Below, piece after piece: positions 2,565 to 63,906 of a DNA stretch of 64,000 nt. How positions within the stretch are numbered: position 1 is the first letter of the stretch; every line of letters begins with the position of its first letter. A program made the translations under genes and the position numbers. Location: the NCBI GenBank assembly GCA_003973385.1, contig QNYK01000010.1, forward strand, positions 4,519 to 68,518, in the 5' to 3' direction. The notes under the pieces were generated by a model. That model was not told the DNA's origin, searched no databases, and saw nothing but the letters and a program-made list of their open reading frames with translations. This DNA comes from Bacillota bacterium (lineage in GTDB: Bacteria; Planctomycetota; UBA8108; UBA1146).

Positions 2565-4100
<1,536 letters not shown>

Positions 4101-4546
4101 CCTTCAGTTTTATTCTGGCATACCGACAGTTCATCCAGTGAACCCGCACAAAGGCGAGAACAAGGGACACCCAGCCGGCGTGTCGCGTCACTAGTTAATT
4201 ACACTATTGTCAATTCACTGAACTCGCGTTCAGGTCAGTTGCACACCACACCCGGGGAGGCATGGCATGCGACCTTCTTCGCGTCACGGGCCCGAAATTT
4301 CAAAGAGCAATCTCGTAGTTCGTTACGGGACGAAAGTCCTCAGGCGACCCATCAAACAACACAAATCCATGCGCCGGTCGAGAAGCTCTCGCTCCGGTCT
4401 GGTCTGGAGTTGCCTGGGAGTGTCCCGAAGGGCGAACCACGAGCAGACCGGGATCCTACATATCGGATCGGTAACATCAACAGCGAATTGTCATTTTCTA
4501 TCAAATACAACCCCGCTGCAATTGGGGAGTTGGATCAATTGAAGGC

Positions 4547-12421: not shown

Positions 12422-13452
12422 CCCTGGTTCTCCTCATTCTCGGGTGCAATCCCGATCAACTTGTTGATTTTCACGACGAGGTCGTTGAGGTCTGTACTTC
12501 GCGGGACTCGGCGACCGGAACGAACCTTGATCTCGAGTTTTTCAGGTTTCACATCCCTGGCAGAAGCGGGCAGACCCTGCGAGATATAGAGTTTCTTCGA
12601 TTCGTTGGTAGTCCTCTTGCCCACTGCGACCGACAACTCGAGCAAGTAGGAGAGCGCCAATCTGTGAGCGACAAATCGGGGCTCGTTGAAACCCTTTCGA
12701 ATCTCCTCCTGATAGGTCACGAGTCTCTTGATGACCTTCTTATCCATGAATTCGCGCCACTTCTTCTCGTCGAACTCACCCTTGGAGTTGACGTATTCGG
12801 TCGCCAACTCGACCGCCTTGACACCTTTTCGGACCGTGCCGTCGATCGTGGCCATCTCCGTATACCTGCTTGTGAACCACTCTCTGGTGGTATTGAGCGA
12901 CGCCTCGATCTCTTCCTTGGTCCCGAGTAAGAACTGGTGATTGAAGTGGAATTCGGTCCATGGTGCGGCGACTGCAGGAAACAGTTCTTTTTCCTTCTCG
13001 ATGGCAGTCATCACCTTTTTTGTCTGCTTCTTGGGATCGATCACGGTTCGGAACATGTACTTGTCCGCAGTCGGTTCAAGAGGTTTCACGGCAAGCTGTT
13101 CGCGAAATCGTTTGTTGCCAGGCACTGTCATGGTGAAGGTCTGGATCAACTGACTGCGCCAGGTCAAAAGCAGGTCAATTTTCGTACCTGCCGGGATCTG
13201 TGGGGTCTTCCCCAGAACGATCAGCGTATAGCGGCCCGTCTTCTCATCCTTGGTCGCTTCGATAGCTGTGAACTCGACCAGTCGCAGATCTGTTCCCCCC
13301 GGCCCCCTGCCTTCGCCTTGTGCGAGAATCACGGCTGGCAGCCACGAGAACATCACACCCAGTATCAAACCGATCCACAGGGAACTCCTGAGAACCGGTC
13401 CCGGAATGAAGTTCTCGCTCGGAGTCATCGCAGATCTCCCTGCAGGGTTCAT
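12418..13452 (-). CDS. Secreted hypothetical protein, paralog 1 (344 aa, signal peptide)
   Basis: Signal peptide/TM LWIGLILGVMFSWLPAVILAQGEG. It is a paralog of the 11471..12421 product. A TGATG overlap links it to the upstream giant gene. Confidence 0.65.
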   Translation of the reverse strand: MNPAGRSAMTPSENFIPGPVLRSSLWIGLILGVMFSWLPAVILAQGEGRGPGGTDLRLVEFTAIEATKDEKTGRYTLIVLGKTPQIPAGTKIDLLLTWRSQLIQTFTMTVPGNKRFREQLAVKPLEPTADKYMFRTVIDPKKQTKKVMTAIEKEKELFPAVAAPWTEFHFNHQFLLGTKEEIEASLNTTREWFTSRYTEMATIDGTVRKGVKAVELATEYVNSKGEFDEKKWREFMDKKVIKRLVTYQEEIRKGFNEPRFVAHRLALSYLLELSVAVGKRTTNESKKLYISQGLPASARDVKPEKLEIKVRSGRRVPRSTDLNDLVVKINKLIGIAPENEENQG

Positions 13453-16400: not shown

Positions 16401-16952
16401 CAGTGGATTTGTTCCGTAGCGAGTATCTTTCTCCAGGGCAGCCGCCAGATTGGTCAGCATCTGGGCCAGCGTATCCTGTCTGCCATTGATGTAGAGTTGC
16501 GCCGAGGTGTCGATCAACTTGACGCGGTAGCGGTCCTTGCCATCCGCTCCCCCGGCGATACCCGGGTAAGAACCCCGTGTCAGGTTGTCTCCGAGCGAGG
16601 TCTCATCCGGGGGCGCATGACGCAGATCGAGGATTCCTCCGATCCTCGACTCGCCATCGCCTCCTGTGATGCCGTAGATCCACGGAGCCCGAGCTCGGCT
16701 GGAAACGACGTATCCTTCCCAGAAGGGGCGACTCCTGAGCATCGAGATCACCTCGGACTCGGCTGAAGCGGACAGCAACTGGGCCTTGTTATGATCCCGG
16801 AAATTCTCGGTTGCTTTCAGTTCAAGGCGCATCAGAGCCACGAAAGTGACCGCGATGATCGAGATCAGTGTCAGCACAGCCAGTGCGATGAGCAACATCG
16901 ACCCGCGCTCGCGACAGGCGGGGCCATTCACCTCAGGCGTCTCTGGAAACAT
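13452..16952 (-). CDS. Giant (~1166 aa) GspK-like pseudopilin-domain protein with C-terminal LamG/concanavalin-A-like domain
   Basis: N-terminal hydrophobic segment MLLIALAVLTLISIIAVTFVALMRLE is like the T2SS minor pseudopilin GspK N-terminus. Motif ININTAPEPLLIAALQGVGG resembles the GspK helix-hairpin-helix (NxNTAs) region. The C-terminal WRAHEWHHLAVAYDDNSPTNGIRVWVDHTTVD resembles a LamG/ConA-like fold. The ATG at 16952 is preceded by GAGGAGAGGGAAAGGGAAACC, and an alternative TTG lies at 16979. Confidence 0.6.
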   Translation of the reverse strand: MFPETPEVNGPACRERGSMLLIALAVLTLISIIAVTFVALMRLELKATENFRDHNKAQLLSASAESEVISMLRSRPFWEGYVVSSRARAPWIYGITGGDGESRIGGILDLRHAPPDETSLGDNLTRGSYPGIAGGADGKDRYRVKLIDTSAQLYINGRQDTLAQMLTNLAAALEKDTRYGTNPLWSGPRETGRQLFGEDVIAFRNRLPGGLFSSKSELAALIGRENLALLADFITAHAWVNPYTQRSGAGREVNNRVGGQANQGQGAGATGISRNLPQDPRNQTVIGAAQVVGEPRAPININTAPEPLLIAALQGVGGRRAFPYMSINSQSLESGNVGAIDFGGGTLAPVREELSIQQTPVWVYSQPLTYDVARNIARGIVGQRKQRAFKFWTAPVGSGEIGFEDFINRLPPDIFPFPNAENAWVINPQSTNTDNNYSKIVNDVGSRELWTRGVPQVEQGLRSDVGLPADRNNAWYYEMMRSILIANFNPNTRINKVNPNFPAYRAVDKSNLVKFPPGRDRSDVRMGHTTEFCFDSKGIFEITSLAEITGAGNSSNEVFSESKQRSIVKVFEVYHHTTQEQFEEPFRAVGRTSNARGGSREYITTWPDPMDALHPDFFTGSRQDGRVELSGAIDAVMQVSDPSARLARWSGEATLRLAHTFRFRDEESLRVLGNLMRTNSNPTAKIKELGKVLDATYSQKGTIYRQRYSQSVWGAADSAVEEENIGEPFVDEASQNSDLMPDGINSSMFRTSALGGRFLRLPAQRYRQNPSDQGAVNRNYNNDIGNLPYYNGAVSFWVKMEFNGDDPTFSGLIGATQVQTNVGQQLTDSEGSQFWIWKNTEGQLRVSRLYYHQAFAKGYTAQAIPLIGNQDEVEEGNEAETDPQKFWARTDVAVDISNWRAHEWHHLAVAYDDNSPTNGIRVWVDHTTVDAVNHNIGEGMFCALNEEAPKDQIQIAGFHRDQAVATEGLFKFGTNYTTTGLLKGASVKRVLANATIDEFRVYLGQYTQDDSRQKGYYTDQEGIYTGAFMVPFPDGIQRMRLRNMTWTMYSPKMYAQQRVDWNDETMSVINVNGQQSARQLGDSGGGIRGDGGRNNQLIAGGWLYPTGSPDFIGRFNIGFLAYELRMRAGTGIGTFAGKALVTPALDDVTLSVYLPSAEYLLTEVMD

Positions 16953-16984
16953 GGTTTCCCTTTCCCTCTCCTCGGGCAATCCCC

Positions 16985-23422: not shown

Positions 23423-24247
23423 TCAAATGGCAGTATCCGGCTCGGGAATCGACAGCGAGAGACGCTCGATCAGTTCCTGGCACAGATCCTCGATCTCCCC
23501 CGCCGCCGGACCGGTCGGATCATGGCCGAAGATGGAGAGGCCAAAAGATGGCGCCTCCGCCACCTTGACCCGCGACGGGATCTGCGTACGGGTCAACTGA
23601 TCGGGGAAATGACGCCTGAGTTCCTCGACCACCTCACGTGACAGTCGCGTGCGAGGATCGACCATCGTCGGCACCACCGCGTTCCACTTCAGGCCGGGAT
23701 GGAGTCGCTGCTGAACCAGCGTGATGACCTTCATCAACTGAGCCATGCCCTGCAATGCCAGGTACTCCGCCTGCACCGGCACGACCACCTCGTCTGCGGC
23801 AGCGAGGGCGTTGAGCGACAGCAGGCCGAGCGAGGGAGGGCAATCGAGAAGTACCAGATCGAAGCTGTCATCGAGGGTATCGAGAGCATCGCGCAGCAAC
23901 AATTCACGACCCAGTTCCTGCGAGAGTTCCCCCTCGGCACCGGAGAGGTCGATATGGGACGGCACCAGCGACACCGCCTCGGCAGGAACCTCGAAGATAC
24001 ACTCCATCAGCGGCTTCTCGCGTCGCAAGGCAGCTTCGATGGTGCTGTTCTCGATCCGCTCGAGGCTGGCGTCGGTCAACGAATCGCCCAGGGAGAGAGT
24101 CAGGTGCGCCTGCGGATCGAGGTCGACCATCAGCACGCGAAAGCCGAGTCTCGCCCACCCCACCGCACAGTTGAGGGTCAGCGTCGTCTTGCCGACACCC
24201 CCCTTCTGGTTGATGAACGCGATCCGGACATCGCTGCGATCATTCAA
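23423..24247 (-). CDS. parA: ParA/Soj/MinD-family P-loop ATPase (no adjacent ParB)
   Basis: Deviant Walker A IAFINQKGGVGKTTLTLN and a ParA body of 274 aa. Confidence 0.85.
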   Translation of the reverse strand: MNDRSDVRIAFINQKGGVGKTTLTLNCAVGWARLGFRVLMVDLDPQAHLTLSLGDSLTDASLERIENSTIEAALRREKPLMECIFEVPAEAVSLVPSHIDLSGAEGELSQELGRELLLRDALDTLDDSFDLVLLDCPPSLGLLSLNALAAADEVVVPVQAEYLALQGMAQLMKVITLVQQRLHPGLKWNAVVPTMVDPRTRLSREVVEELRRHFPDQLTRTQIPSRVKVAEAPSFGLSIFGHDPTGPAAGEIEDLCQELIERLSLSIPEPDTAI

Positions 24248-24300
24248 GAAAACTTTCCCCCTTCAGCACGGTACAAGCAGCAAGGTGCAAGAAGCGCAGT

Positions 24301-24924
24301 TCAAAGTGCGTCGCCGTTGGCTCCATCACAACTGGGACAGGCCTGCCAATCACGATAGAAATCGAGATAGATATCCGGGCCCTCTTCCGACTGGAACTGA
24401 TACAGCAATCCCATGCCCTTTTTTCTCATCTCCTTCAACGCCATCGCCAGAGCTTCTCGCTGCTGATCATCGAATCCCGAGCTGGTGGTCCTCTCGGCGA
24501 CCCACCGATCGATCAACTGCTGGAGTGCGTCGCGACGCTGCAGGTTGTCATCGGAGAGGAGCCTGGCCTGAACTGCAGGATCGAGCCCGGAGCCGAAGGT
24601 ATCGCGACCGATCTTGTCTCGATAAAAACCGGGACGCGCCGCATAGACGCGCATCGCATCGAGGGCGGGCATGCAGATGGGACAGCCGTAGACGAAGTTG
24701 TGAGGAATCCCTGCCGGTTCATCGATGTTGGCGATGGCGCTGGCGACGCGGGTCTCGACACCATCCCTGTAAAGTCCCTCGAGGACGCCAAAGAAGATCA
24801 GTTGCTGCACCTGCTCGTGGGGAAGCGATCTGCGAACCTGGACGGTGCTATTTTGCTGCCAGCGGTCCTGGATCGGCTGGCAGGCGACGAGAATCAGCGG
24901 CAACCACAGTAGCATCTTCAGCAT
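24301..24924 (-). CDS. Hypothetical lipoprotein with two Cys pairs (CPICMP, CPSCDG)
   Basis: Signal peptide plus lipobox MLKMLLWLPLILVAC, with CxxC pairs that suggest a metal or redox site. The long opposite-strand ORF is low complexity and was rejected. Confidence 0.45.
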   Translation of the reverse strand: MLKMLLWLPLILVACQPIQDRWQQNSTVQVRRSLPHEQVQQLIFFGVLEGLYRDGVETRVASAIANIDEPAGIPHNFVYGCPICMPALDAMRVYAARPGFYRDKIGRDTFGSGLDPAVQARLLSDDNLQRRDALQQLIDRWVAERTTSSGFDDQQREALAMALKEMRKKGMGLLYQFQSEEGPDIYLDFYRDWQACPSCDGANGDAL

Positions 24925-25069
24925 CGATCACTCCTCCCCTGCCATCATCGAGCAGCAGTCCGATCATCGCTGCCTGACTTCCCCAAGTCCAGCGTGCAAC
25001 CTTTCGACCGGTGCCCTTTCAAATCAGCGATGACTGGATGGAGGGGACCTGAATCTCTACCCTCCGGTC

Positions 25070-26929: not shown

Positions 26930-28111
26930 TCAGTCTTTAAGCGAATTCGAATGCCACACGACCAGCCCGCGCAACAGGTGGCAGCCATCTCCGAAGGCCC
27001 GTTCCCACGTCTCGGTATCGCTCTCCTGCGTGTCGCCAGAGAGCAGAATCCCGGAGGGGTCCACCTCCTCGACCAGCCTTTTCTTGACCTGGCTCGCCGC
27101 AGCGAGGCAACTGTCAGCGGCCTCGGCGACCTGCTTCTTCGTCAGCAGATCGAGTGCCCGGCAACGTCCCAGCAGATCGAGGCCATGGCCCGCCAGTTTC
27201 ATGCGCGCGAGCACGGCATGCCGCGCCGCACGACGCGGCGAGATCCCCGCCGCCAGAGCTCTCTGCTCCTCGTCGAGTCGAAACTGCAACTCCCAGGAGA
27301 GGCGCCTTGTCATCAGCAACAGGCTCCTGATCACGCGATCTTGATCCGCCTCCTGCAGATATCCCGCATCGACCGACTCCGCCAGTGCTGACAGGAGGTG
27401 CATGCCACCGCAGGTGTAGGCCCAGGTGCCGGCAATCGCAGGACCCTGCATTCCATCGGGACGCTGGTCGCCCTGTTCGAGGCAACGCTTGACGACCTGA
27501 TCCGATTCCTCGACCGCCGCCACCAGGATCCTCGCCAGGGATGCCAGATCTCCATCCACAGTCGGGGTCGTGGCGGCAAGTTTCAGCACCGCAGCGGCTT
27601 CGATCAGCCATGCGAGATCATTGATCTGCTGCCAGCTTGTTGGCGTACCCTTGCGGGCGAGGGCTCGCTCGATTCGATGCTTCAGGTGCGGTGTGTGAGT
27701 CGATGGAAGCACCCAGGCTGCGGTGCGAAGCATCAGATGCGGGTGTTGCTCTCCTCGATGGCCGTCATCGCCATGGAGTGGGATCCGGGCCTTGTCGTCC
27801 TGGATCAGGTCGACCCATCTTGACCTCAGGCTGGAGAGGCGCTGGGCAGCGGGAAACGCCAGCATCAGGTGAGCCCCGGCCCATGGATCGGAACTGGCGA
27901 GACCAGCGTCAAGAATCCGCGCCGAGAAAACCGCTTCCGGTTGCACAGGGATCACTGAAGTACAGCCGATCAACAGCATCAGCAGCGTTACACCGCAGTA
28001 AAGCCCAGGCCGCCTCTGCGGCGTCAGGTCCTCTGATGGGGATCGAGATGGTGCCGCCAAGTCGCGCCTCCCTTGTGCTGGCATCAGATCGTATCGAGAT
28101 CGATGGGGCAA
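26930..28111 (-). CDS. Hypothetical lipoprotein (393 aa); weak LanC-like/alpha-toroid hints (TWAYTCGG, GDGCHLLRG)
   Basis: Lipobox LLMLLIGC. It is helical-repeat rich. The motif resemblance is speculative. Confidence 0.4.
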   Translation of the reverse strand: MPHRSRYDLMPAQGRRDLAAPSRSPSEDLTPQRRPGLYCGVTLLMLLIGCTSVIPVQPEAVFSARILDAGLASSDPWAGAHLMLAFPAAQRLSSLRSRWVDLIQDDKARIPLHGDDGHRGEQHPHLMLRTAAWVLPSTHTPHLKHRIERALARKGTPTSWQQINDLAWLIEAAAVLKLAATTPTVDGDLASLARILVAAVEESDQVVKRCLEQGDQRPDGMQGPAIAGTWAYTCGGMHLLSALAESVDAGYLQEADQDRVIRSLLLMTRRLSWELQFRLDEEQRALAAGISPRRAARHAVLARMKLAGHGLDLLGRCRALDLLTKKQVAEAADSCLAAASQVKKRLVEEVDPSGILLSGDTQESDTETWERAFGDGCHLLRGLVVWHSNSLKD

Positions 28112-38476: not shown

Positions 38477-40561
38477 TTGAGACGCCCACTGCCGATCCTG
38501 GTCACACTTCTGCTGCTGTCGCTGACGCTCTTCGGCGCAGATCCCAAGGAATTTGAACTGCCCGGCCCTCCAGCCGCGGGGCCAGGTCGCATTCCCCATC
38601 ACCACGGCGCCATCGAATCTCTCTCCGGCATCTCCGAACTCTCCAGAGAGAACCGTTCATCGGCAGCCATGTTGTTGCGGAAGTGGCTCGAAACACGCGA
38701 TGGGCTGCTGGTGCTGCCCCCCGCGGGAGTATCGGTGGGCAGCCGCGGAACCGTCCGCATCGAGCCCGCTCATCGACAGTTGGCGCGCTTCGCCAGGTCG
38801 CTCCCCGATGGGTTCCTCGACCTCGCCCTGGAACGGTTGGCCCCGATCCCCATCGATGGAGTCCACCCATGGGTATGGCATCCGGAACAACTTCCGCAGG
38901 CCAACCACGCCTTGCACGAGGCACTCGAGCGCGCCGATCGAGCAGCGGCCTGGGCACTGCTGGAGCGACCGGGGATCGCGGTCGGGATCGATCCCGAATT
39001 ACTCCGATGGCTCGATGGCCAGGAATTGCCTCGTGGGCCGTGGCACCGGAGCGATGGCCCCCTCACCGAGGAGCCAGAACAAACAGCGGGAGGCTCGGTC
39101 GAGGGAGCGTTGACGATCCCGATGCCCAGGACCGGACCCGAACGAAAGAGAAGAATCAATTCCAGGGTCCAGCTGACCCGGCGCCATCCGCTGTCTGATC
39201 TGTTTCCGCTGATCGGCGATCGGATGGCGTTGCTCGGTAACGGCGACAGGGTCATCGCCATCGACATCGATGATCCGACGCTGGAAGCGTGGCAATGGTC
39301 GATCCATCGACCCGAGATCGATCACGCCAGCAAGGCCCCCGAGAGGCCATTGCCTCTGATCAGTGTTCCCGAGATCCCCGTCAGTAGCGGTGACCGGTGC
39401 GTATTCTTGCTCCGAACACCGCGCAAATACCACCGCCCATCGACCAATCTCATCATGGAAAGCGGACCCTGGAAGGACAAGGGATGGCTGGAAGCGGTGG
39501 TTCTCGAGATCCCCGATCCGACCAGACCGCCGGTTTCCTCCTGGGTTGCGCCCATCGCAACCGAGGGCTTCACCGCCTGCCCGACTCCGTTGATCGAAGG
39601 CGACCGGATGTGGCTGCTGGCCACTCGCGGTTGGGCCCAGCTGGAGACATGGGTGTTCGCGTTTGACCTGGCCGCTGGCAAGGAGTTGTGGCGTCGCCAG
39701 GTCGAGGTGCGGGATCTGGAAGCCCACGCACTCAATGACCTGCGCGACAAGATACTGCACGCGTCGCTGGTGCGAGATGGGGACGATCTGCTCGTGTGTC
39801 GCTCCGGCGGTGCCATCGATAGCCTGTCAGCGATCACCGGGGAGCATCAGGCAGCTCTGTACCTACCACGATGGCGGTTCGAGGAATTACCGAGTCTCAG
39901 CGACATCCGCTGGGGTCACTACCGGTTCCTCGCTTATCCAGGACTGAGACCACGATCGATGGCACCGATCCAGCGGCCCGCCGATGCCGAAACCCCGTGG
40001 CTGTTACTTCCTCCCGATGGCCGCCTGCTGATCGCACTCGACAAGGAGTCGTGGCAGATCCGCTGGAGTTATCCGACCAGCCGCCAGATGTCGCTGCTGG
40101 GCATCGTCGATGGTGTCGCCTGGCTGGTAGATCTGGCGACACCTCCGGGAACCCGGAATGTTCAGCTGGTGGGTCTGGATCCGCGCAGCGGCAGCATCGT
40201 GGCGGGACCCTGGACCATTCCACTGGAGACGGAGGATGATTCCGAGGGGAGCGCTGAATACCAGCGACACGCACCGTTGCTCAGAGGGCAACCGAGGATT
40301 TTTCCCGGACGCATCTGGTTCCCTGCAGCAAGGGGAATCGAGGTCGTATCGCTGGAGGACGGCAGCCGGATCGGCCTGCTTCCCTGGCCTGAAGGATCCA
40401 GAGGTGGCACTCCGCTACCGCTTCCAGGGGGCGAACTGTTGCTGGCTCGACGCGCAGATAGCGCACTTCCCTCCAGCAGCGTGATCGAGGTGATCCGGCC
40501 CACCGCAACAGATGAGATCAAGAAACCTGAACCGCAACAACCTGAACCGCAAAAAGATTAG
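38477..40561 (+). CDS. Secreted hypothetical protein (694 aa), probable beta-propeller (PQQ/BamB-like WxxQ repeats), C-terminal PEPQ repeats
   Basis: Signal peptide MRRPLPILVTLLLLSLTLFGA, with repeated W..(R/E) strands and a C-terminal KKPEPQQPEPQKD. Confidence 0.5.
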   Translation: MRRPLPILVTLLLLSLTLFGADPKEFELPGPPAAGPGRIPHHHGAIESLSGISELSRENRSSAAMLLRKWLETRDGLLVLPPAGVSVGSRGTVRIEPAHRQLARFARSLPDGFLDLALERLAPIPIDGVHPWVWHPEQLPQANHALHEALERADRAAAWALLERPGIAVGIDPELLRWLDGQELPRGPWHRSDGPLTEEPEQTAGGSVEGALTIPMPRTGPERKRRINSRVQLTRRHPLSDLFPLIGDRMALLGNGDRVIAIDIDDPTLEAWQWSIHRPEIDHASKAPERPLPLISVPEIPVSSGDRCVFLLRTPRKYHRPSTNLIMESGPWKDKGWLEAVVLEIPDPTRPPVSSWVAPIATEGFTACPTPLIEGDRMWLLATRGWAQLETWVFAFDLAAGKELWRRQVEVRDLEAHALNDLRDKILHASLVRDGDDLLVCRSGGAIDSLSAITGEHQAALYLPRWRFEELPSLSDIRWGHYRFLAYPGLRPRSMAPIQRPADAETPWLLLPPDGRLLIALDKESWQIRWSYPTSRQMSLLGIVDGVAWLVDLATPPGTRNVQLVGLDPRSGSIVAGPWTIPLETEDDSEGSAEYQRHAPLLRGQPRIFPGRIWFPAARGIEVVSLEDGSRIGLLPWPEGSRGGTPLPLPGGELLLARRADSALPSSSVIEVIRPTATDEIKKPEPQQPEPQKD

Positions 40562-45126: not shown

Positions 45127-47250
45127 TTGGAGCGTGAGGATGAGGATACAGTGGTTCGCTCCCTCTTCTTACGATCGCTGCTGCTGCTGCTCATCCTCAG
45201 CACCTGGTCCGGCTGCCACCGCAAGGGCGCCACTGCAGCAGCCACCAGTCCACTCATCGAGAACCTGTCGGTCCTGATCGAAACAAACTCTGCTTTCGTA
45301 CACTTCGATGTCATCGATCCAATCGAACGCACCTGGGATGCACAGATCTTCTTCAGCGACGACCTGGGTCAACAATGGCAACCTGCCACGCCAATCGCTG
45401 GCAGTCAGGGATATATCGAGTTGATCCCACCCTTCGAACCGGTCGTCACCGAATGGTCTTTTCGAGGTGATCTGATCACCTTGCCTCAGGCTGACATCCT
45501 CGTGGAAGTGCGCCTGTACGATCTCGAAGGAGTGTTGCACGCCTCCAGTAGAAGTGAACCATTAGCCATCGGTGACCCCACCACGCCATCGGTCGACTCC
45601 GTGACGATTCCATCTGGCCCCGTGGGTGGCCCCATCTCCATCGGTTGTCTCATCTCCGATGCGGATGATGATTTCGTGATGGTTCACATGGAGTGGTCCC
45701 TCGATGGAAATGAGCCCTGGAATCTGTCTACTCTTGATGCTCCGGGAGATGTCATCGTTGCGTGCGATAACGGGGTTACTTCCATCGAACTGATATGGCT
45801 CTCCCACATCGATACGCCGGGAGTTTTCAGTCCGTTCGCCAGGGTCCGCATTGTCGCCACCGACGCAGTGGGATCATCCCAGGCCACCAGCAACTACCTC
45901 GCTCTCAATACCATCCGACCGAGAATTGACGCCGTCACCATCGGTGAGGTCCCCGATTACCTCAATGGAAGCGAGCCATACAACGATGGATCTGCCGAAG
46001 CTGTGCCATTCCGGCTGTCGGTTCCGACTGTCGGCACGCAGATCAAGATCGCATGGAGTGCCGGAGTCGGCGGTGCTGCCCCCGACTCCGCGACAGTTGC
46101 CATCTCCGCAGACCGACCCATCGCAGGGCGAGGAAGCGGCGAACCACTTGAGGACCTGTTCGTCATCGAAGGATCGACCGCCTCCTGGAGAGTTTCGGAA
46201 CTGCACCCTCTGCCATTGGGCTTACTGACATTGACCGCCAACATCGACGACATCCGCGGCAACCCTGCCGAGGATCGGTTGTTCGAGGTACTGGTCACTC
46301 CCGGAGCTGCCTCGGCACGACCCTTCGACTGGCAGGACCGTTGGCATGTCGATTTCCAGCGCGACAATTACAGCGTCGGATTGCAATTGGACCAGTTCGG
46401 CAATTTCAGTCCCTTCGCAACTCCAGGTGCTGATGGTGAGGCTGACCACAGACAGGATCTGTTGACCGTCGGACTGCAGTCTGATCAGCCGACATCGGCA
46501 GCAGTGGCTGCAGGTACCGACATGCGGGTTCGCATGTGGGTCGAGCAGGCCATCATCGACCGGATGAAGTTCATTTTTGGTGAATCACCTCAAACTGGTG
46601 GAGAAGGCCTACAATCTCAATTGCAGATTCAGACCAGTGCCGTCGGTGCGACCAGCGCCATCGGCATCGGCGGCGATGATGTGGATCCGTACAGTTACGC
46701 ACTGGGGCGAGCAGCCTTCGACCACCGCAACAGTAGAGCCAATGATGAACGCGCCTCCAACCGTGGCGTTTTCTCCAGCAACATGGTGCAGTTCTACTGG
46801 AACTCATGGACCTTCAGGAATCGGTTTCAGGAGGTTCTCCCGCACCTGGGTGTACCGGTGGGAGAGCATTCCCTCGATTCCCTCGTCCTCGGTTTCGGTT
46901 TCGAGAGACTCGATCCGACCAACTCCGCTGCACAGAATCTGAGATACGACGGCGTCTGGGACGCGGTGGATGCCTGGAGCCGAATCAATGCAGTAGTGGC
47001 AGCCCATGAGGTGGGACATGCTGTCGGACTGTGCGCCAACGGCGCCCCTCCGACGGGACTGTTCGGGGGTGTCTCCAGCGCTGATTTCGCCGGCCCCTAC
47101 ACCACTTCATTTCACATCGATACACCAGGTTTGAATGTGATGTCATCTGCGCTAGGCCTGACCTCCGCACTCGTCGAGGGAGATGTCGGGTATCACCTCA
47201 ACCCATTGAACGAGGCATACATCGCCGAGTGGACCACGCTGGAGCCCTAG
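45127..47250 (+). CDS. Lipoprotein with Ig-like repeat region and C-terminal zincin-like HEVGHAVG motif (putative zinc metalloprotease)
   Basis: Signal plus lipobox-like LLLLLILSTWSGC, then repetitive beta-rich segments. The C-terminal AAHEVGHAVGLCANG is an HExxHxxG metzincin-like motif. The TTG start at 45127 has alternatives at GTG 45151. Confidence 0.55.
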   Translation: MEREDEDTVVRSLFLRSLLLLLILSTWSGCHRKGATAAATSPLIENLSVLIETNSAFVHFDVIDPIERTWDAQIFFSDDLGQQWQPATPIAGSQGYIELIPPFEPVVTEWSFRGDLITLPQADILVEVRLYDLEGVLHASSRSEPLAIGDPTTPSVDSVTIPSGPVGGPISIGCLISDADDDFVMVHMEWSLDGNEPWNLSTLDAPGDVIVACDNGVTSIELIWLSHIDTPGVFSPFARVRIVATDAVGSSQATSNYLALNTIRPRIDAVTIGEVPDYLNGSEPYNDGSAEAVPFRLSVPTVGTQIKIAWSAGVGGAAPDSATVAISADRPIAGRGSGEPLEDLFVIEGSTASWRVSELHPLPLGLLTLTANIDDIRGNPAEDRLFEVLVTPGAASARPFDWQDRWHVDFQRDNYSVGLQLDQFGNFSPFATPGADGEADHRQDLLTVGLQSDQPTSAAVAAGTDMRVRMWVEQAIIDRMKFIFGESPQTGGEGLQSQLQIQTSAVGATSAIGIGGDDVDPYSYALGRAAFDHRNSRANDERASNRGVFSSNMVQFYWNSWTFRNRFQEVLPHLGVPVGEHSLDSLVLGFGFERLDPTNSAAQNLRYDGVWDAVDAWSRINAVVAAHEVGHAVGLCANGAPPTGLFGGVSSADFAGPYTTSFHIDTPGLNVMSSALGLTSALVEGDVGYHLNPLNEAYIAEWTTLEP

Positions 47251-57765: not shown

Positions 57766-60700
57766 TCAGGGACAAACCGTCTCCATGCACTGCAAGGTGT
57801 CGCCGGTCAGATCCTCCCCACACGTCGCTCCCGGGGCCGGCAATTCTGCGCCACCGGAGAAGAGATATGTCAGTACTGTGATGGGATCCGCAACATCGAT
57901 GCTGCCATCGTCGTTACTGTCGTGACCATCTTCACAGCTGGTGAGAGAAGTGCCTCCTCCGAACAGAAGTTGCAGCGTCGAGATCGCATCCGAGATATCG
58001 AGCGAACCGTCTCCATTTCCATCGCCACGGACGAAGAAGACGCCAGAGCAGGATCCAGGTTGAGACAGTGCGTCAGCAGGATCGGAACATGCAAGACGCT
58101 CGTCCCCATCAAAGTGGCCGTCGAGATCACGATCGATGCCCATCCGTAGGGCCGATTCGGTGGGGACCACGGTGAAGGTCACTTCCGCACCCGCTACCGC
58201 CGAGTTGAGAAGTTCGGTGAAGGTGGTGCCTTCGGTGAGGATGTCGGACTGGAATATGCCGGTGCCGGCACCCACCAGTACCCAGCCACGAAGGAAACCG
58301 CCTTGCCATGCCTTGGCGATCACACCGACCCTGCCCAGGCTCGCCTCCTCGAGGATGATCTGCGCAACTGCGAGCACTTGCGGGTCATCTCTATTGGTCT
58401 CGTCGAAGGTGATCTGCATACCCACTGCAGCGTGCGAATCCTGGCTTGGCGATCCGAGAGGTTCGAACGGTGTCTGGTTGCTTCCATCAGGGAGGTCGGA
58501 TCCAGAGAACGCGAGCATGAAGGCGGTCAGATCGGCAATCTGCTGATCATTGATCACCGAGAAGGCAGGTTCACTGATGAAGCGCTCGACAGAATCCACC
58601 GACCCGTCGTGCAGGAATCCAAATCCGGTGGTGTTGAGCAGTTGAGTCGTATTGAAGCCGGAGCGCTTGTAGACGTTTCGCAACTGAGGAATCTTAATGT
58701 TCCTCTGGGCGGAACCGTCGACACTGACCATGCCGTGGTGCTTTTCCCCCATCGGACCGTCCGGAATCTCTTCCATGACAAAGCCAGCACTGAATACCGA
58801 GTTGGGTCCGATTCCGATGGGCAACGCGTGGCAGGTCACACACTGCAGACCTCCATCGAGGCCAGCATTGCGGTAGAGATCCAGCCCAGTCACTGCGTTT
58901 CCTGGTCCCAGTGATTCACCTTCAGACCCGAAGCGACCGGTCGTGTAATGCCCATCGAGTGGCAATGCCGTCGGCAGTTCATTCCTGAGGCCGCGGAACG
59001 GATTGGGAGGAAAATAGATGCTGGCGAGGAACGCCTCGAAATCCTGCATCGAATTGCCTCCAAGCGGGAGATCATCTCCATTGATCGACATGAATGCGCC
59101 ACCAAAGGCCTCGATACCAAATTTATCTCCACGCCAGTGATGAGGTTCCTTGCCGATGATGTCCTGCAATGTCTGCGTCAACATCGGTCCCTTCATCGGA
59201 TGGAAATCATCACACGGAGGTACTCCCGGCAGCGGCAAACCCATGTTGCAGACATCCACAAATGGAGCCACCTCCCCGGCAGGATCTCCCAGATCCCATG
59301 CCAGGCGGTCGGTCCTGGCATCGACATGGCAAGAAGCACAGGAGACCTGGCCCATTCCGGAGGTGAGGTGTGTGTCGTAGAGGAACTTTCGGCCCGCGCG
59401 CACCACTTCACCGGTCGGATCGTGATATGTGTCTCGACCACTGATGGTGCCGGTCTGTATATCGATGGAAGCCACCGATGCATCGAAGTGCTCGTGTACA
59501 TAGAGCTTCCCCCTCGATTCATCGAGGGCGAGACCGGTCGCTCCCGCGCCCACGTCGATGGGGTCCGCAACAAGGTTTCGGGTTCCGTCGGCCTGCAGCC
59601 TGACGACATTTCCTGATCCCTTACCGGCGACAAAAGCCTCGGTACCCGCGGCATTCCAGACGATGGCACGCGGATCTCCGATGCTCAGTAACTGCTGATC
59701 GGGGGGAACACTGACACCACCGGCGGGTAGATGAGGATTGAGATCCTCGATCTGTGCGCTGGCCGTACCTCCCGGGGTGATCATCGCATGCAGCACATCG
59801 ATGAAGTGCCCGTTGAGATTGTGTTCGTAGCGGATGTGATTGAATGCCTCTGTTCCGACCACCGAGATGGCTCCATCGGTCGGACGAACACCGATCGCCA
59901 TGCAGATGTTCATCAGGGACTGGATGTATGTGACCGAGTTGTCCGCAGTATCGATGACCGCGACATCATGATCTGCCAGATCCCAGCCGACCTGACGACC
60001 CGAAAGGTCTGCCTGTGGCCCGCTGACGAAATCTCCCCAGTCGCTTCCATTGTCATCGACCCACACATCCTGGTCGATCTTCTTCACGATCAGTGCCACG
60101 GGTGGAGGTGTACCTATGCTGGGGTTCAGTGGTGGCTCAAAGTCGCCATTGGCATTGGGCGGAGGATTGACGCCACCATAAGGCCCCGCTGGATCACTGA
60201 CGATGTTGGGAGGGAAAGCGATGACATTGAGTCCGCCGTCAAATCCTCCACCGAGCACGGTGGTGCCATTGCCGGATTCAAAGATGGCGCAGTAGACGGT
60301 CGATCCGTCGGGGCTTTTTGCAAGTGCCCGAGGCTCCTCACCGATCAAAGCTATGATCTCGGGGGAGGCTGTCACATCGGATGGATCGAACACCATGATC
60401 TCATCGGTCCCCGAGCAGGAAACATAAGCCCGTTCCGGAGTACCTGCAAAGATCACATCCGCAGGTTCATCCGCTGTCATCAATGTCCATCGCACATAGC
60501 CATTTTGTAGATCGACGATGCTGATGGTGTCGGAAATTCGATTCACCACCCACGCCTCGGTCGCATTGCGAGCTCGCACCGATACAGGATCCAGCCCTAC
60601 CGGCACCGACAGCAACGGCACCGGGACACCGGAACTGATGTCGTAGATTTCCAGGTGGGAATCTGCAGTGTTGGTCGCCAGCAACAGGTCACTGCCCGAA

Positions 60701-60828
60701 ACCAGTTCAAGCGGATGTACCGGGGGGCTTTCCCAGTTGATCCAGGATTCACTGGTGACCTGTGCTGAAAGTGCTGAACAGAAGATCAGCAAGGATACCA
60801 ATACTGCCATCATTGTAGTCGTTCTCAT
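57766..60828 (-). CDS. Giant secreted protein: N-terminal beta-propeller, di-haem cytochrome c peroxidase/MauG-like domain (CASCH, CVTCH), C-terminal dockerin-type calcium-binding repeats
   Basis: Signal peptide MRTTTMMAVLVSLLIFCSALSAQ. Haem-binding motifs SCASCHVDARTD and CVTCHALPIG. The C-terminal DGNGDGSLDISDAISTLQLLFGG and DDGSIDVADPITVLTYLFSGG are dockerin-like duplicated EF-hand segments. The ATG is at 60828. Confidence 0.65.
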   Translation of the reverse strand: MRTTTMMAVLVSLLIFCSALSAQVTSESWINWESPPVHPLELVSGSDLLLATNTADSHLEIYDISSGVPVPLLSVPVGLDPVSVRARNATEAWVVNRISDTISIVDLQNGYVRWTLMTADEPADVIFAGTPERAYVSCSGTDEIMVFDPSDVTASPEIIALIGEEPRALAKSPDGSTVYCAIFESGNGTTVLGGGFDGGLNVIAFPPNIVSDPAGPYGGVNPPPNANGDFEPPLNPSIGTPPPVALIVKKIDQDVWVDDNGSDWGDFVSGPQADLSGRQVGWDLADHDVAVIDTADNSVTYIQSLMNICMAIGVRPTDGAISVVGTEAFNHIRYEHNLNGHFIDVLHAMITPGGTASAQIEDLNPHLPAGGVSVPPDQQLLSIGDPRAIVWNAAGTEAFVAGKGSGNVVRLQADGTRNLVADPIDVGAGATGLALDESRGKLYVHEHFDASVASIDIQTGTISGRDTYHDPTGEVVRAGRKFLYDTHLTSGMGQVSCASCHVDARTDRLAWDLGDPAGEVAPFVDVCNMGLPLPGVPPCDDFHPMKGPMLTQTLQDIIGKEPHHWRGDKFGIEAFGGAFMSINGDDLPLGGNSMQDFEAFLASIYFPPNPFRGLRNELPTALPLDGHYTTGRFGSEGESLGPGNAVTGLDLYRNAGLDGGLQCVTCHALPIGIGPNSVFSAGFVMEEIPDGPMGEKHHGMVSVDGSAQRNIKIPQLRNVYKRSGFNTTQLLNTTGFGFLHDGSVDSVERFISEPAFSVINDQQIADLTAFMLAFSGSDLPDGSNQTPFEPLGSPSQDSHAAVGMQITFDETNRDDPQVLAVAQIILEEASLGRVGVIAKAWQGGFLRGWVLVGAGTGIFQSDILTEGTTFTELLNSAVAGAEVTFTVVPTESALRMGIDRDLDGHFDGDERLACSDPADALSQPGSCSGVFFVRGDGNGDGSLDISDAISTLQLLFGGGTSLTSCEDGHDSNDDGSIDVADPITVLTYLFSGGAELPAPGATCGEDLTGDTLQCMETVCP

Positions 60829-60846
60829 CAAGAGCCCTTCGGTCTT

Positions 60847-60856
60847 GGGGGGGGGG
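60847..60856. repeat. Homopolymeric tract G10 (C10 on the coding strand) 19-28 nt upstream of the giant dockerin protein start codon
   Basis: Read directly (GGTCTTGGGGGGGGGGAGCA). Confidence 0.85.
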
Positions 60857-60908
60857 AGCACGCAATCCGCTGTACACCATCGATGATAGGGGATGAGGCC
60901 CTGAGTCA

Positions 60909-61820
60909 CTAGCGCGAAGATACCTCATCCATGCGTCGAGAAATCTCTGCAAGACGCTCTTTGCCGCCTCCAGAGACCTCTGCAGATCCCCATCCGCGGT
61001 AGCCAACCTCGTCGAGAGCCTTCATCGTCTCGGCCCACTCGACCGAGGACTCGGGATCGCCGATCTTGCACTTGAACCCTGCCCAGGGACCGTCCTTTTC
61101 CATCAGAGCGCGAGAGTAATCCTTGATATCGACCTTGATGGTACGACTTCCGAGTTTGCGGACCCATTCCGGAGGACTTCCATAGCGCACGATGTTTCCG
61201 GTATCGAAATACCACCCGACCCAGGGGCTCTCGAACTGATCGACATACTTGACCGCTTCATCCGCGTCGGTGATGAAATCGTTCCAGACATTTTCGAAGG
61301 CGATGCGAACCTTCAACTCTGCGGCGAGGGGAATCAGTTCCTTGATCGCCTCGGTCGAACGTTGCCAGGCATCTTCGTAGGTCGCCGCTCCATTGGTACA
61401 GGTTCCCGGGACCAGCAGGACGGTGGTACCACCGAAGAGACGACAGTCTCGTAAGGCGGTCTCGACTCCATCGATCCCGGCACGCCGGGTCGCTTCGTCA
61501 GCGGCAGAAAGCGGCTTGCCCCAGTGTGTGGAACAGACCACTCCCGGGATCTCCAGACCACTCTCCGCCTTCGCTCTCAGCACCTCTCGCCAATCGAGGC
61601 CCGATGGAGAATCGAGTTCGATGCCGTCGAAACCGAGACCCTTGAGAATCTGGAACTTCTCCAGCAGCGTGTCTCCCACCTTCGCCATGCCGATCTTGAG
61701 GGATTTCTTGAGCCTGGGTGCTCGACCATGAAACCCTGGAATCGACATCTCCATCGCCTTTCCCAGCGAACTCCCGATCACAGCCAGCGAAGTCGCCGTG
61801 ATAAATGTCCTGCGGTCCAT
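60909..61820 (-). CDS. TAT-exported sugar phosphate isomerase/epimerase (xylose isomerase-like TIM barrel)
   Basis: Twin-arginine signal MDRRTFITATSLAVIGSSLG. The TIM-barrel core is ...GFDGIELD...VRIAFENVWN. The ATG is at 61820. Confidence 0.65.
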   Translation of the reverse strand: MDRRTFITATSLAVIGSSLGKAMEMSIPGFHGRAPRLKKSLKIGMAKVGDTLLEKFQILKGLGFDGIELDSPSGLDWREVLRAKAESGLEIPGVVCSTHWGKPLSAADEATRRAGIDGVETALRDCRLFGGTTVLLVPGTCTNGAATYEDAWQRSTEAIKELIPLAAELKVRIAFENVWNDFITDADEAVKYVDQFESPWVGWYFDTGNIVRYGSPPEWVRKLGSRTIKVDIKDYSRALMEKDGPWAGFKCKIGDPESSVEWAETMKALDEVGYRGWGSAEVSGGGKERLAEISRRMDEVSSR

Positions 61821-61834
61821 CTCGGCACTCCTGC

Positions 61835-63100
61835 CTAGACCAGTGCAGTCCGTCCGGGAACCGCCACCTCGGGCATGGCAAGATCTCCAAACTCCCACCT
61901 CTCCGGCAGCAGGTCCAACTGCGAGTTGAGGGCGAAGTCGAGGGTGACCTCCTTACCGGTGTAGGCACTCATGCGACCCATGATGGCGGTCAGCGTACTC
62001 ATCGCGACTCGCTCCGCCTCGTTGAGGGGATCGTTGGCGCGGATGCTTGCGATCAGGTCAGCGTGTTCCTGGACATATGGATTCTTACCGCCACCGGGGG
62101 CGCTCCAGTTGGTCTCACCGGTGATCCGGCCCGATGGGTTGGCCACTCCCTTGGTTCCGATGATCTTCTCCGAGACCCGGTTCCAGCAGCCGTCGATCTG
62201 ACGGCATTCACTGAGGGTTCGGACGCCACCGGGATAGACATACTCGACCGCAAAATGGTCGAAGACGTGACCGTATTCAGCTCCGGTTCGGACCTGACGC
62301 CCCCCCATCGCATTGGCCTTTTCAGGCGGACCTCCGAAGGCCCAGTTCATGACATCGATGTTGTGGATGTGTTGTTCGACGATGTGGTCTCCACTGGCCC
62401 AGGCGAAGTAGAGCCAGTTCCTGACCTGCCACTCCATGTCCGACATCTGGGGCGTCTTGCGAGCCACCCACAGTCCACCCTGATTCCAGTACACCTGTGC
62501 TGCGACCAGATCTCCGATGGCGCCATCGTGAATCTGCTGCATCGTCTCGATGTAACCCTTCTGATGCCGGCGCTGGGTGCCCGCAACGACTGCGAGCCCC
62601 TTGTGCTTGGCAACCTTGGCTGCTTCCAGCACCTTGCGAATCCCGGGCCCATCGGTGGCGACCGGTTTCTCCATGAAGACATTCTTGCCAGCAGCCACAG
62701 CGGCCTCGAAGTGGATCGGACGGAAGCCAGGGGGGGTGGCCAGGATCACCATGTCGACATCGGAGGTGAGCAGTTGCTGGTAGGCATCGAAGCCGACGAA
62801 GCAGCGTTCTTCAGGAACATCGAAGCCGTCGCCGAGTTTCTTGAGGTTATTGCGACTCGAGTCGAGACGGTCCCGGAACAGATCCGCCATGGCGGTGATC
62901 TTGACACCCGGGGAGGAATTCACGCAGTTGTTGGCAGCGCCCGAACCACGGCCACCACAGCCGATCAGTCCGACGCGGATGATATCCGAGCCACCGGCAT
63001 GAACCGAACCGGGCAAGGATGTCAGCAGGGTGGCTGCAGAAGCGGCGGCCGCTCCCTTCAAGAAGTCTCTACGGGTCGCACCAGGATCCTGCTCGCTCAT
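61835..63100 (-). CDS. TAT-exported Gfo/Idh/MocA-family NAD(P)-dependent oxidoreductase
   Basis: Twin-arginine signal ATRRDFLKGAAAASAATLL. The Rossmann motif is RVGLIGCGGRGSGAA, and the C-terminal region is GFO_IDH_MocA-like. Confidence 0.75.
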   Translation of the reverse strand: MSEQDPGATRRDFLKGAAAASAATLLTSLPGSVHAGGSDIIRVGLIGCGGRGSGAANNCVNSSPGVKITAMADLFRDRLDSSRNNLKKLGDGFDVPEERCFVGFDAYQQLLTSDVDMVILATPPGFRPIHFEAAVAAGKNVFMEKPVATDGPGIRKVLEAAKVAKHKGLAVVAGTQRRHQKGYIETMQQIHDGAIGDLVAAQVYWNQGGLWVARKTPQMSDMEWQVRNWLYFAWASGDHIVEQHIHNIDVMNWAFGGPPEKANAMGGRQVRTGAEYGHVFDHFAVEYVYPGGVRTLSECRQIDGCWNRVSEKIIGTKGVANPSGRITGETNWSAPGGGKNPYVQEHADLIASIRANDPLNEAERVAMSTLTAIMGRMSAYTGKEVTLDFALNSQLDLLPERWEFGDLAMPEVAVPGRTALV

Positions 63101-63906
63101 CGGTCCTCCTTGTTAGACTGTCCTTTAGAGTTCGGTTTCGATTCGGCTCTGCTGGGCCACCAGAGATCGGCCAGTACCAGCGCCAGCAAGATCGCCTGGC
63201 CGATGCTGTAGCCGACCCCGGAGATCACGATGCACAGCGCCCAGGATGGACTGAAACGGGCCAGCCACCAACCCCCTATATCCCCCAGCAATCCGAGCCC
63301 CATCACCGCTACCAGCAGCGAGATGGTTCGAACAGGCCAGCGCGTCAGCAACGCCAGAGCCACTACCACGATGCCCTGAATCGACATGCTGAGGGCGTGA
63401 GCATGGGTCGACATCGTCAGAACAGTGTCGGGAGTGGCGCGAATCTCGCGCGAAAATGCGATCGATTTGATGTCGTCAAAGTACTCGAGGGGTGGCAGGG
63501 GCGTCCCCGTCTCCGCTCCCGTCTGACGTGTATGGCAATCCAGGCAGCGGCTTGCGATGATCTCGGCAGGCGGGATCTCCAGATCGAGACTGTCGTAATC
63601 CTCGACGATCCGGGTGCCCGCGAGCCAGTCGAGCAGGATCTGTTTCTCGGCAGCAGGAAGTTCCGCAGGATGCCCTCGCTCGAGCGCCGAATTGAGCAGC
63701 GAGGGAGTGTTGATGCCGTGGTAAGCACCCTTGATGTCATCGAGAGTAAACTCCGGTCGCTCGTCGCGGTTCGCGTAGTGATTCACGAGGTGAGATGCGC
63801 TCGCCGCCAATCCCCCCAGTAACACCAGTACCAGCCCGGTCAATCCGAGGCGAATCCCGATCGGTTGAGTGTGAAGCCCGTTGCCCACGGTGTGGCTCCC
63901 AGCCAT
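63097..63906 (-). CDS. Membrane protein with one CxxCH c-type haem motif (CLDCH) followed by ~4 TM helices
   Basis: N-terminal TM, a periplasmic segment with RCLDCHTRQ, and C-terminal hydrophobic helices. It overlaps the Gfo/Idh/MocA start by 4 nt. Confidence 0.5.
   Translation of the reverse strand: MAGSHTVGNGLHTQPIGIRLGLTGLVLVLLGGLAASASHLVNHYANRDERPEFTLDDIKGAYHGINTPSLLNSALERGHPAELPAAEKQILLDWLAGTRIVEDYDSLDLEIPPAEIIASRCLDCHTRQTGAETGTPLPPLEYFDDIKSIAFSREIRATPDTVLTMSTHAHALSMSIQGIVVVALALLTRWPVRTISLLVAVMGLGLLGDIGGWWLARFSPSWALCIVISGVGYSIGQAILLALVLADLWWPSRAESKPNSKGQSNKEDR

Follow-up and report, generated by a model that had tools for sequence, protein, structure and literature searches.

Introduction

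In bacterial cytochrome c peroxidases (bCCPs) the loop that follows the HDG motif provides a Met ligand, and in MauG and BthA the same loop provides a Tyr (PMC6405878). In hydrazine synthase (HZS) the haem gamma-II has bis-His ligation (PMC12607021). According to a partial alignment with HZS-gamma, the second His of gamma-II would be supplied by this same loop. The hallmarks of HZS are an adjacent alpha-subunit gene, a third thioether formed by gamma-Cys165 and a His at position gamma-144 (PMC12758564). Here, we describe a gene at positions 57766..60828, on the reverse strand, of a stretch of 64,000 nucleotides from a planctomycetotal genome (contig QNYK01000010.1; the whole stretch is called the window), whose product joins a beta-propeller, a divergent di-haem c module, a family-specific alpha/beta domain and a dockerin-like tail.

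We propose that the protein is a Sec-exported haem oxidoreductase, consisting of a propeller, a di-haem core and a localising tail, with a chemistry that is most likely peroxide-dependent. The probability of this reading is roughly 0.55. The domain architecture is secure.

Gene and domain architecture

The longest form of the open reading frame (ORF), 57766..60909 on the reverse strand, starts at the first GTG and encodes 1047 residues. The GTG at 60909 overlaps the stop codon of the upstream gene. An ATG at 60828, with GAAGGG located 6 nt upstream, gives a product of 1020 residues. We chose this ATG because both the homologues and the predicted signal peptide start there, and the N-terminal extension to the GTG was dropped. 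The closest homologues, P0001 (97% identity), P0002 and P0003, are each 1020 residues long, and P0001 and P0003 share the start Met of the query. The length of 1020 residues given in an earlier note on this DNA is therefore kept, supported by the homologues, while its description of the protein as giant is an overstatement for a mass of about 107 kDa. A scan for promoters and terminators was uninformative.

A full-length AlphaFold model was built from an alignment of 96 sequences, with a mean predicted local distance difference test (pLDDT) of 86.7 and a predicted TM-score (pTM) of 0.87. The C-terminal half (residues 468-1020) was also modelled alone, with a pLDDT of 80.5. The features of the gene are, from the N-terminus to the C-terminus of the protein:

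57766..60828, reverse strand: coding sequence, 1020 residues and stop; homologues of 1020 residues begin at the same Met
60763..60828, reverse strand: predicted Sec-type signal peptide, residues 1-22, MRTTTMMAVLVSLLIFCSALSA, with predicted cleavage before Gln23, read from the sequence
59428..60747, reverse strand: YVTN-type beta-propeller, residues ~28-467, from sequence and profile matches in PDB and from Foldseek, pLDDT mostly >90
58444..59427, reverse strand: divergent di-haem c module of the bCCP/MauG/HZS-gamma superfamily, residues ~468-795, from Pfam, profile searches, hhalign and Foldseek
59326..59340, reverse strand: first haem c motif CASCH, residues 497-501 (C497, C500, H501), aligned with the CxxCH of CCP_MauG, HZS-gamma and MbnH
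59284..59298, reverse strand: WDLGD motif, residues 511-515, with W511, D512 and G514 invariant; in the PDB alignments of the module profile it is matched only in HZS-gamma (LIWDLGDE)
59125..59142, reverse strand: HHWRGD, residues 563-568; H564, W565 and D568 do not vary, and W565 is proposed to correspond to the Trp that lies between the haems in the FWDGRA motif of bCCP/MauG
58828..58842, reverse strand: second haem c motif CVTCH, residues 663-667 (C663, C666, H667), aligned with the second CxxCH of 3o5c, 1iqc and E. coli Ccp
58600..58695, reverse strand: signature block of the bCCP C-domain, from KIPQLRN (712-718) to LHDGS (739-743), aligned with KVPTLRN...YFHDGS of 3o5c and KVPGLRN...YFHRGD of E. 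coli Ccp
58135..58443, reverse strand: family-specific alpha/beta domain, residues ~796-898, pLDDT 88-97
58072..58134, reverse strand: TSP3-like Ca-binding linker DRDLDGHFDGDERLACSDPAD, residues 899-919, with D899, D901 and D903 invariant
57853..58041, reverse strand: dockerin-like module, residues ~930-992, with two F-hand Ca loops, from a clade profile and Foldseek
57769..57846, reverse strand: Cys-rich C-terminal tail ELPAPGATCGEDLTGDTLQCMETVCP, residues 995-1020; a similar tail ending in ..CP closes unrelated Planctomycetota proteins

In the AlphaFold model residues 2-21 form a helix of low confidence. Across the alignment the N-termini are hydrophobic and their sequence is not conserved. 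The signal peptide, the six Cys of the C-terminal region and the pair C527/C539 are compatible with an oxidising compartment.

The di-haem module

Both Cys and the His of each CxxCH motif are invariant in all 96 aligned homologues, and also in about 28-29 more divergent homologues with 38-50% identity. Being invariant in both sets, the motifs are far beyond chance. They are separated by 166 residues, which falls within the superfamily criterion of about 145-170.

Besides the CxxCH motifs, the invariant positions in the 96 sequences are W511-D512-L513-G514, M545-K546-G547, H564-W565-R566, D568, P608-N609-P610, R612, R717 and H740. Down to 38% identity, Myxococcus included, the residues that are still invariant are C497/C500/H501, W511/D512/G514, K546/G547, T551, H564/W565, D568, C663/C666/H667 and G742. 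Among the conserved residues, H543, K546 and H564 are candidates for the distal residues of haem 1.

The Pfam family CCP_MauG (PF03150) is matched with 26.9 bits against a cutoff of 25.6, in a match limited to residues 476-504 (28 residues). The homologues obtain 20-28 bits, so that some pass the cutoff and others do not. In these homologues the match starts at the first CxxCH, reaches profile position ~77 and stops at HHWRGD, which fits W565 as the counterpart of the inter-haem Trp.

Using a profile of the module only, we found in PDB the bCCP 3o5c (E 6.8e-4), HZS-gamma 5c2v_C (E 7.6e-4), MbnH 6e1c (E 4.8e-3) and the Nitrosomonas CCP 1iqc. In the profile alignment, WDLGD and PFRN.D.SL are common to the family and HZS-gamma. 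The single sequence gave marginal matches to dockerins and MbnH in PDB. The NCBIfam matches of the protein, to the hydrazine synthase beta-gamma fusion, PQQ_ABC_repeats, YncE, the MbnH family and MauG-like, are all weak: hydrazine_BC obtains 44.4 bits against a cutoff of 1250, hydrazine_beta 37.6 against 560 and hydrazine_gamma 15.7 against 625.

The second haem domain was aligned to E. coli Ccp by hhalign with a probability of 93.6% and an E-value of 2.2e-7. The alignment pairs CVTCH with CATCH, KIPQLRNV with KVPGLRNV, FLHDGSV with YFHRGDV and ADLTAFMLAFSG with DDIVAFLHSLNG. For the first haem domain the probability is 28.6%, with FWDGRA left in an insertion, and a restricted ungapped register, which is non-significant, places W on W. 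From the sequence, W565 is likely the equivalent of the inter-haem Trp.

When the C-terminal half is compared to PDB using Foldseek, only bCCPs and HZS-gamma are found among the six best long matches: 3o5c_B (E 1.9e-3, probability 0.97), 5c2v_C (probability 0.98), YhjA 9qdt, Geobacter CcpA, Pseudomonas 2vhd and a Neisseria CCP. Each match covers about 365 columns, with a TM-score of only about 0.4.

The earlier note had read the two motifs as spaced as in CCP/MauG, and had made its call depend on their lying in such a fold. The spacing, hhalign, the profile and Foldseek all agree with a bCCP-like assignment, and the fold matched is that of bCCPs and HZS-gamma at the TM-score just given. The search with hidden Markov models that the note had suggested is borderline on the single sequence: CCP_MauG is just over its cutoff, and the propeller families and Dockerin_1 are sub-threshold. 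We conclude that the module is a divergent member of the bCCP/MauG/HZS-gamma superfamily, and that it is not a canonical peroxidase, MauG or hydrazine synthase.

The beta-propeller

The propeller matches PDB 1l0q with an E-value of 4.9e-14 using the single sequence and 9.8e-29 using a profile. The profile also finds HZS-beta (E 7.9e-13) and YncE (E 2.6e-12). In Pfam the propeller families stay sub-threshold for the single protein. In the Foldseek comparison with PDB, the best match of the full-length model is HZS-beta 5c2v_B, with an E-value of 3.2e-15 and TMt 0.78, and the top dozen also contains 1l0q (a YVTN surface-layer propeller), Lp49, YncE, NirF and cd1 nitrite reductase. The propeller matches range from TMt 0.64 to 0.78. 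These matches bear out the N-terminal beta-propeller of the earlier note. The public names "lactonase" and "DNA-binding YncE" reflect the propeller fold only and were not adopted.

According to the model, residues 40-467 contain 30 strands, consistent with seven or eight blades, and the best matches are seven-bladed. The propeller carries a conserved insertion rich in Pro, Trp and Asp at about residues 193-286 (NPPPN, WxDDNGxDW, SGRxxGWDLxDHD). The invariant charged or aromatic residues are R85, W93, D100, E121, D124, N187, W256, D258, W282, R333, E335, N364 and R387. Because the propeller is conserved about as strongly as the haem module, it is probably functionally engaged and more than a scaffold.

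Distribution and conservation of the family

Among 8000 candidates scored, 3944 relatives have an E-value of at most 1e-3, and the best 120 are all at least 51% identical. An exhaustive search with the haem module alone (residues 470-915) gave 2105 clusters at 50% identity with an E-value of at most 1e-3, 461 of them with at most 1e-30. In nearly all full-length matches the module begins at residue ~460-500, therefore the architecture of propeller and di-haem module is fixed. This core of about 900 residues shows about 50% identity over residues ~1-925 in distant phyla.

With one genome scanned per species, the family is present in at least 576 species, mostly metagenome-assembled genomes (MAGs) of Planctomycetota (Planctomycetia, Phycisphaerae). 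The other carriers are cultured Myxococcus, Corallococcus and Pyxidicoccus, and MAGs of Verrucomicrobiota, Acidobacteriota, Sumerlaeota, Omnitrophota and Gammaproteobacteria. The nearest genomes are the Planctomycetota MAGs XB_MAG1214 (94%) and SI037S4_bin26 (90%).

In public databases the members are named "YncE family protein", "beta-propeller fold lactonase family protein", "Cytochrome c domain-containing protein" or hypothetical. The YncE and lactonase names miss both haems, and the YncE name covers less than half of the protein. The protein is notable as a member of a large and highly conserved di-haem family with unannotated haems and cultured members, and it is ordinary as a secreted multidomain protein of a Planctomycete. 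The version without a tag from a cultured Myxococcus species, WP_163866139.1, makes the family open to experiment.

The C-terminal region

For the alpha/beta domain (796-898) no relative was found in PDB or Pfam. Foldseek matches to cysteine proteases and deubiquitinases were dismissed, as their probability is at most 0.3. The linker that follows (DRDLDGHFDGDE..SDPAD) is matched by the Pfam family TSP3_bac in four out of nine family members, with a best E-value of 4.3e-4.

The dockerin-like module contains the Ca loops DGNGDGSLDISD (936-947) and DSNDDGSIDVAD (970-981), followed by predicted helices at 945-955 and 980-990. Pfam Dockerin_1 (PF00404) gives 13.8 bits and an E-value of 0.07, under the cutoff of 22.9. 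Among the 32 clade members with this tail, seven have a Dockerin_1 E-value of at most 0.01, the best being 3.8e-6. A profile built from the 32 members finds solved dockerins across both repeats: 2y3n_B (3.7e-5), 5m2o_B (7.8e-4) and CelS (1.5e-3). In the Foldseek comparison the tail matches 4uyq_B with a probability of 1.00, TMt 0.78 and a root mean square deviation of 1.7 Å over 68 columns, and 2ccl_B with TMt 0.82. Both the clade profile and the modelled fold thus agree with the C-terminal pair of dockerin-like Ca-binding repeats proposed before.

The C-terminal region has six Cys, including C914, C927 and C965. The tail can be described as a dockerin-like module with conserved Cys and an extension of about 26 residues, ..CGxDPTxDxLxCxxxxCP. 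This Cys-dockerin tail is present in 33 of the 96 family sequences. Other members have a classic dockerin pair, a GC-type dockerin, a tail containing FN3, or Cys-rich tails of about 137 and 175 residues, the last two without a Pfam match; the members from Myxococcus (914-928 residues) have no tail. The Cys-dockerin also terminates unrelated proteins that contain PKD, PA14, FG-GAP or TSP3 parts, and NCBI calls some of these "dockerin type I repeat-containing protein". Within the window it is found on this ORF only.

Since the tail is swapped or absent around a fixed core, and reused on unrelated proteins, these sequence comparisons indicate that it is a portable, generic localisation tag, accessory to the core. 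The exchangeable tags form a natural data set on how Planctomycetota place enzymes on the envelope.

Some of these tails can be followed individually. The Cys-dockerin of about 98 residues (FxRGDxNxDG...CGxDPTxDxLxC....CP) is found at the C-termini of the Planctomycetota proteins P0341, P0373, P0330, P0311, P0353 and P0342, and looks like a distinct portable C-terminal module that is mostly missed by Pfam Dockerin_1. The Cys-rich tail of about 175 residues (FCFGDGS..CPC.N..GC.NS ... YRD) forms the last part of P0051, P0060 and P0120, and the tail of about 137 residues, ending with ..ASN(G/A)(L/V)..(T/V)(T/V)P, is found in P0052, P0069 and P0071.

Proposed function

After export, the Ccm/Ccs machinery would attach two c-type haems. 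Haem 1 (His501) would be the catalytic site, and haem 2 (His667) would relay electrons through Trp565. The propeller may hold a substrate or partner against the haem domain, as HZS beta packs on gamma. The reaction would be an oxidation or a reduction that depends on peroxide and takes place in the periplasm or on the cell surface. The dockerin-like tail would serve only to localise the enzyme, by Ca-dependent binding of a cohesin-like or other envelope receptor.

Peroxide-dependent chemistry, the default in this superfamily, has weak support from the genomic context. A peroxiredoxin of the AhpC/Redoxin type (WYPLDWSPTCEKENC) is located upstream on the same strand in seven of 86 loci; it is immediately adjacent in six of them (L006, L018, L024, L032, L041, L044) and about 3.5 kb away in L035. 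In one further locus (L009 5188-5865) a glutathione peroxidase is adjacent. These neighbours are a weak hint of a link to peroxide.

Several observations weigh against a peroxide-dependent enzyme. The canonical distal-ligand loop of haem 2, SVDSVERFISEPAFSVIN, has no Met, Tyr, His, Lys or Cys. In the alignment with 3o5c the Met ligand of bCCPs falls on Pro754, and with E. coli Ccp it faces a gap between E753 and P754; the distal Glu/Gln of bCCPs could not be placed in the alignments to E. coli Ccp. The similarity to bCCPs is remote, with Pfam matching over 28 residues, a Foldseek E-value of about 2e-3 and a TM-score of about 0.4. The confidence of the full-length model is lowest around both haem sites, as is to be expected for a model that lacks the cofactors. 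All seven peroxiredoxin loci belong to one syntenic clade and are no independent evidence. When the flanking ORFs of the 86 loci were clustered, no neighbour family occurred in more than seven loci, and no conserved partner, substrate gene or regulator was found. With no conserved neighbour, the gene behaves as a stand-alone unit. Finally, a literature search found no study of the family and no experimental data for any member.

The surroundings of haem 2 are unusual in other ways. The 25 residues after HDGS (VDSVERFISEPAFSVINDQQIADL) are also without Met, Tyr, His, Lys and Cys, and no Met is found in residues 743-770. There is no conserved Tyr after the HDG motif or near the ligand position of MauG/BthA, where F750 and F756 are conserved instead. 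As the bCCP Met falls on Pro754 or a gap and a Tyr of the MauG type is lacking, the protein is not a canonical peroxidase or MauG. H740 sits in the HDG motif, which is not known to provide a ligand in bCCPs, and H697 is 94% conserved, not invariant. The lack of a Met, Tyr or His ligand suggests that the second haem is tuned to different redox properties. These surroundings, together with the HZS-gamma-like motifs, leave some room for N-oxide chemistry and for oxidation of the MauG type.

Alternative explanations

The earlier note had suggested a surface-anchored oxidative or peroxidatic enzyme complex. In such a cellulosome-like complex the dockerin would dock the enzyme on a cohesin scaffold. 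The tail is indeed dockerin-like in its profile and modelled fold, a non-cellulosomal cohesin/dockerin "planctosome" has been proposed in freshwater Planctomycetes (PMC6461901), and the tail is found on several unrelated secreted proteins, as a shared docking tag would be. However, a Pfam scan of 30 other ORFs from the window found no cohesin, in agreement with the note, which had seen none. The tail is also under the Pfam dockerin cutoff and has a Cys-rich extension not seen in cellulosomal dockerins, and the core is unchanged in members with other tails or none, so that a complex would be dispensable for the core function. The dockerin-like part of the suggestion stands, while the exchangeable or absent tail gives no evidence for a dedicated complex, which we consider unlikely.

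A stand-alone enzyme similar to HZS beta-gamma, converting NO to hydroxylamine or acting on NH2OH or related N-O species, with a propeller that has a structural and gating role like HZS-beta, would explain why HZS-beta is the top fold match of the propeller and HZS-gamma the second of the haem module. It would also agree with the E-value of the module profile against HZS-gamma and the motifs in common, with the presence of hydrazine_BC, hydrazine_beta and hydrazine_gamma among the few NCBIfam models matched, and with the fused beta-gamma homologues reported outside anammox bacteria (PMC12758564). However, these NCBIfam scores are far below their cutoffs, and Trp565 is found where HZS-gamma has His144, if the assignment of this Trp is right. 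Residues 540-662 include no Cys that could form a third thioether. No alpha-subunit-like gene is adjacent in the window or in the 86 clustered loci, and the hosts belong mostly to aerobic heterotroph lineages. We regard this function as improbable.

It is also conceivable, with a low probability, that the family is a fourth branch of the superfamily, in which the canonical loop offers haem 2 no Met, Tyr or His and the substrate site is formed by the propeller, whose fusion is obligatory. If so, a chemistry new to di-haem enzymes could take place on the surface of the cells in Planctomycetota, Myxococcus and other groups. This could be, for example, the conversion of NO or NH2OH by a free-standing unit similar to HZS beta-gamma, or the oxidation at long range of a substrate or residue bound in the enzyme's own propeller. 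In the protein studied here, the display would be through a Cys-stabilised dockerin variant.

A maturase similar to MauG, MbnH or BthA would use a high-valent (bis-Fe(IV)-type) species to oxidise aromatic residues in a substrate protein, perhaps in its own fused propeller, and in this way build a protein-derived cofactor. The family belongs to the same superfamily and its propeller has a highly conserved surface with the invariant Trp residues W93, W256, W264 and W282. The absence of the bCCP Met ligand is a trait of the MauG/BthA branch (PMC6405878), but the Tyr of this branch is missing at and near its position, with Phe750 and Phe756 conserved there. Moreover, no substrate-protein gene is conserved nearby, unlike in the mau and mbn operons, and the heavy chain of methylamine dehydrogenase is not among the top 50 fold matches, which makes a maturase quite improbable.

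An extracellular oxygenase similar to RoxA, an expanded di-haem enzyme, cleaving an insoluble or polymeric propeller-bound substrate with O2, is very unlikely: the protein is secreted and large, with big insertions in a bCCP-derived core (a module of about 330 residues and an extra domain), and its carriers include known polymer degraders or predators (Planctomycetota, Myxococcus, Verrucomicrobiota, Acidobacteriota), but RoxA is absent from the matches in PDB by sequence or by fold, the searches found no module that binds carbohydrates or polymers, and no catabolic genes are conserved nearby.

Genomic context

Upstream of the gene, on the same strand, the window contains three genes:

60909-61898, reverse strand: xylose-isomerase-like TIM barrel
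61835-63100, reverse strand: Gfo/Idh/MocA oxidoreductase with a twin-arginine translocation (TAT) signal
63097-63906, reverse strand: membrane protein of 269 residues with a single CxxCH (CLDCH); its syntenic orthologue is the Pfam family Aq_1264_TM

The CLDCH membrane protein may be a cytochrome that takes electrons from periplasmic sugar dehydrogenases. On its other side, the gene converges on a CitMHS/TrkA-C transporter. The upstream run of genes is kept in close relatives only, and the seven contexts of more distant members all differ.

In Myxococcus an upstream ORF of 915 residues was rejected, as it is rich in Arg and an artefact that lies antisense to a GH15-like gene. Such antisense shadow ORFs occur in two Myxococcus loci (L076 1112-3859 and L058 1066-3204, both on the forward strand) and are mutually conserved. 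Long ORFs in high-GC DNA may be artefacts.

Elsewhere in the window, an rRNA operon occupies positions 1-4110 on the reverse strand, with a complete 16S rRNA (2571-4110), tRNA-Ile (2359-2432), tRNA-Ala (2216-2288) and a 23S rRNA (1-2018) that is cut by the start of the window. The ORF 13452-16979 (reverse strand, 1175 residues) has no Pfam domain, and its sole match is a GspK-like/Verru_Chthon-cassette pseudopilin signal at residues 24-83. Downstream of it, the ORFs 12418-13452 and 11471-12421 have no Pfam match. The same is true for four large putative ORFs, 45127-47250 (forward), 38477-40561 (forward), 26930-28111 (reverse) and 23745-24977 (forward); the first two have no NCBIfam match either.

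Comparison with known systems

The YncE/YVTN surface-layer propellers (3VGZ, 1L0Q) have the same type of propeller repeats as the query, but no haem module. The type I dockerins (PF00404) and the "planctosome" dockerins (PMC6461901) share with the tail a duplicated DxNxDGxxDxxD loop followed by a helix, located at the C-terminus of a secreted enzyme. Unlike in type I dockerins, the tag of the query is below the Pfam cutoff, is found in a region with six Cys, has an extension of about 26 residues and is attached to a redox enzyme, not to a glycoside hydrolase.

The bCCPs (PF03150; Shewanella 3O5C, Pseudomonas 2VHD, Nitrosomonas 1IQC, E. coli Ccp/YhjA 9QDT) have two CxxCH motifs, as has the query with its spacing of 166, and share the C-domain block CxxCH...KxPxLRN...(F/L)HDGS...AFLxxLxG. 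A Trp in WxG(D/R) between the haem motifs is a likely further point in common. The query differs from them by the lack of a Met sixth ligand, by large insertions and by the fusion to a propeller and further domains. MauG, BthA and MbnH are, like the query, di-haem proteins without a Met ligand; MbnH 6e1c is matched with an E-value of 4.8e-3, and the NCBIfam MbnH and MauG-like models are matched weakly. However, the query has no Tyr ligand and no adjacent gene for a substrate protein, and its propeller is fused.

The best overall architectural analogue, absent from the earlier note, is hydrazine synthase beta+gamma (Kuenenia 5C2V; fused in Scalindua). Here as well, a cofactor-free YVTN-like propeller precedes a bCCP-like di-haem c module; among the fold matches, 5c2v_B ranks first for the N-terminal half and 5c2v_C second for the haem module, and the WDLGD and PFRN motifs are shared. 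In the query, an alpha gene nearby and a third haem-binding Cys are missing, and so is a His in the loop that would provide the second gamma-II ligand. The query also carries an additional alpha/beta domain as well as a C-terminal tag, is encoded by a single gene and is found in non-anammox, mostly aerobic lineages. The non-anammox beta-gamma homologues (Hagglund et al. 2025, PMC12758564) have, like the query, a Trp at the assigned position of gamma-His144. The family is thus the closest widespread look-alike of the HZS beta-gamma unit outside anammox bacteria, and it bears on the origin of hydrazine synthase and on the range of di-haem chemistry.

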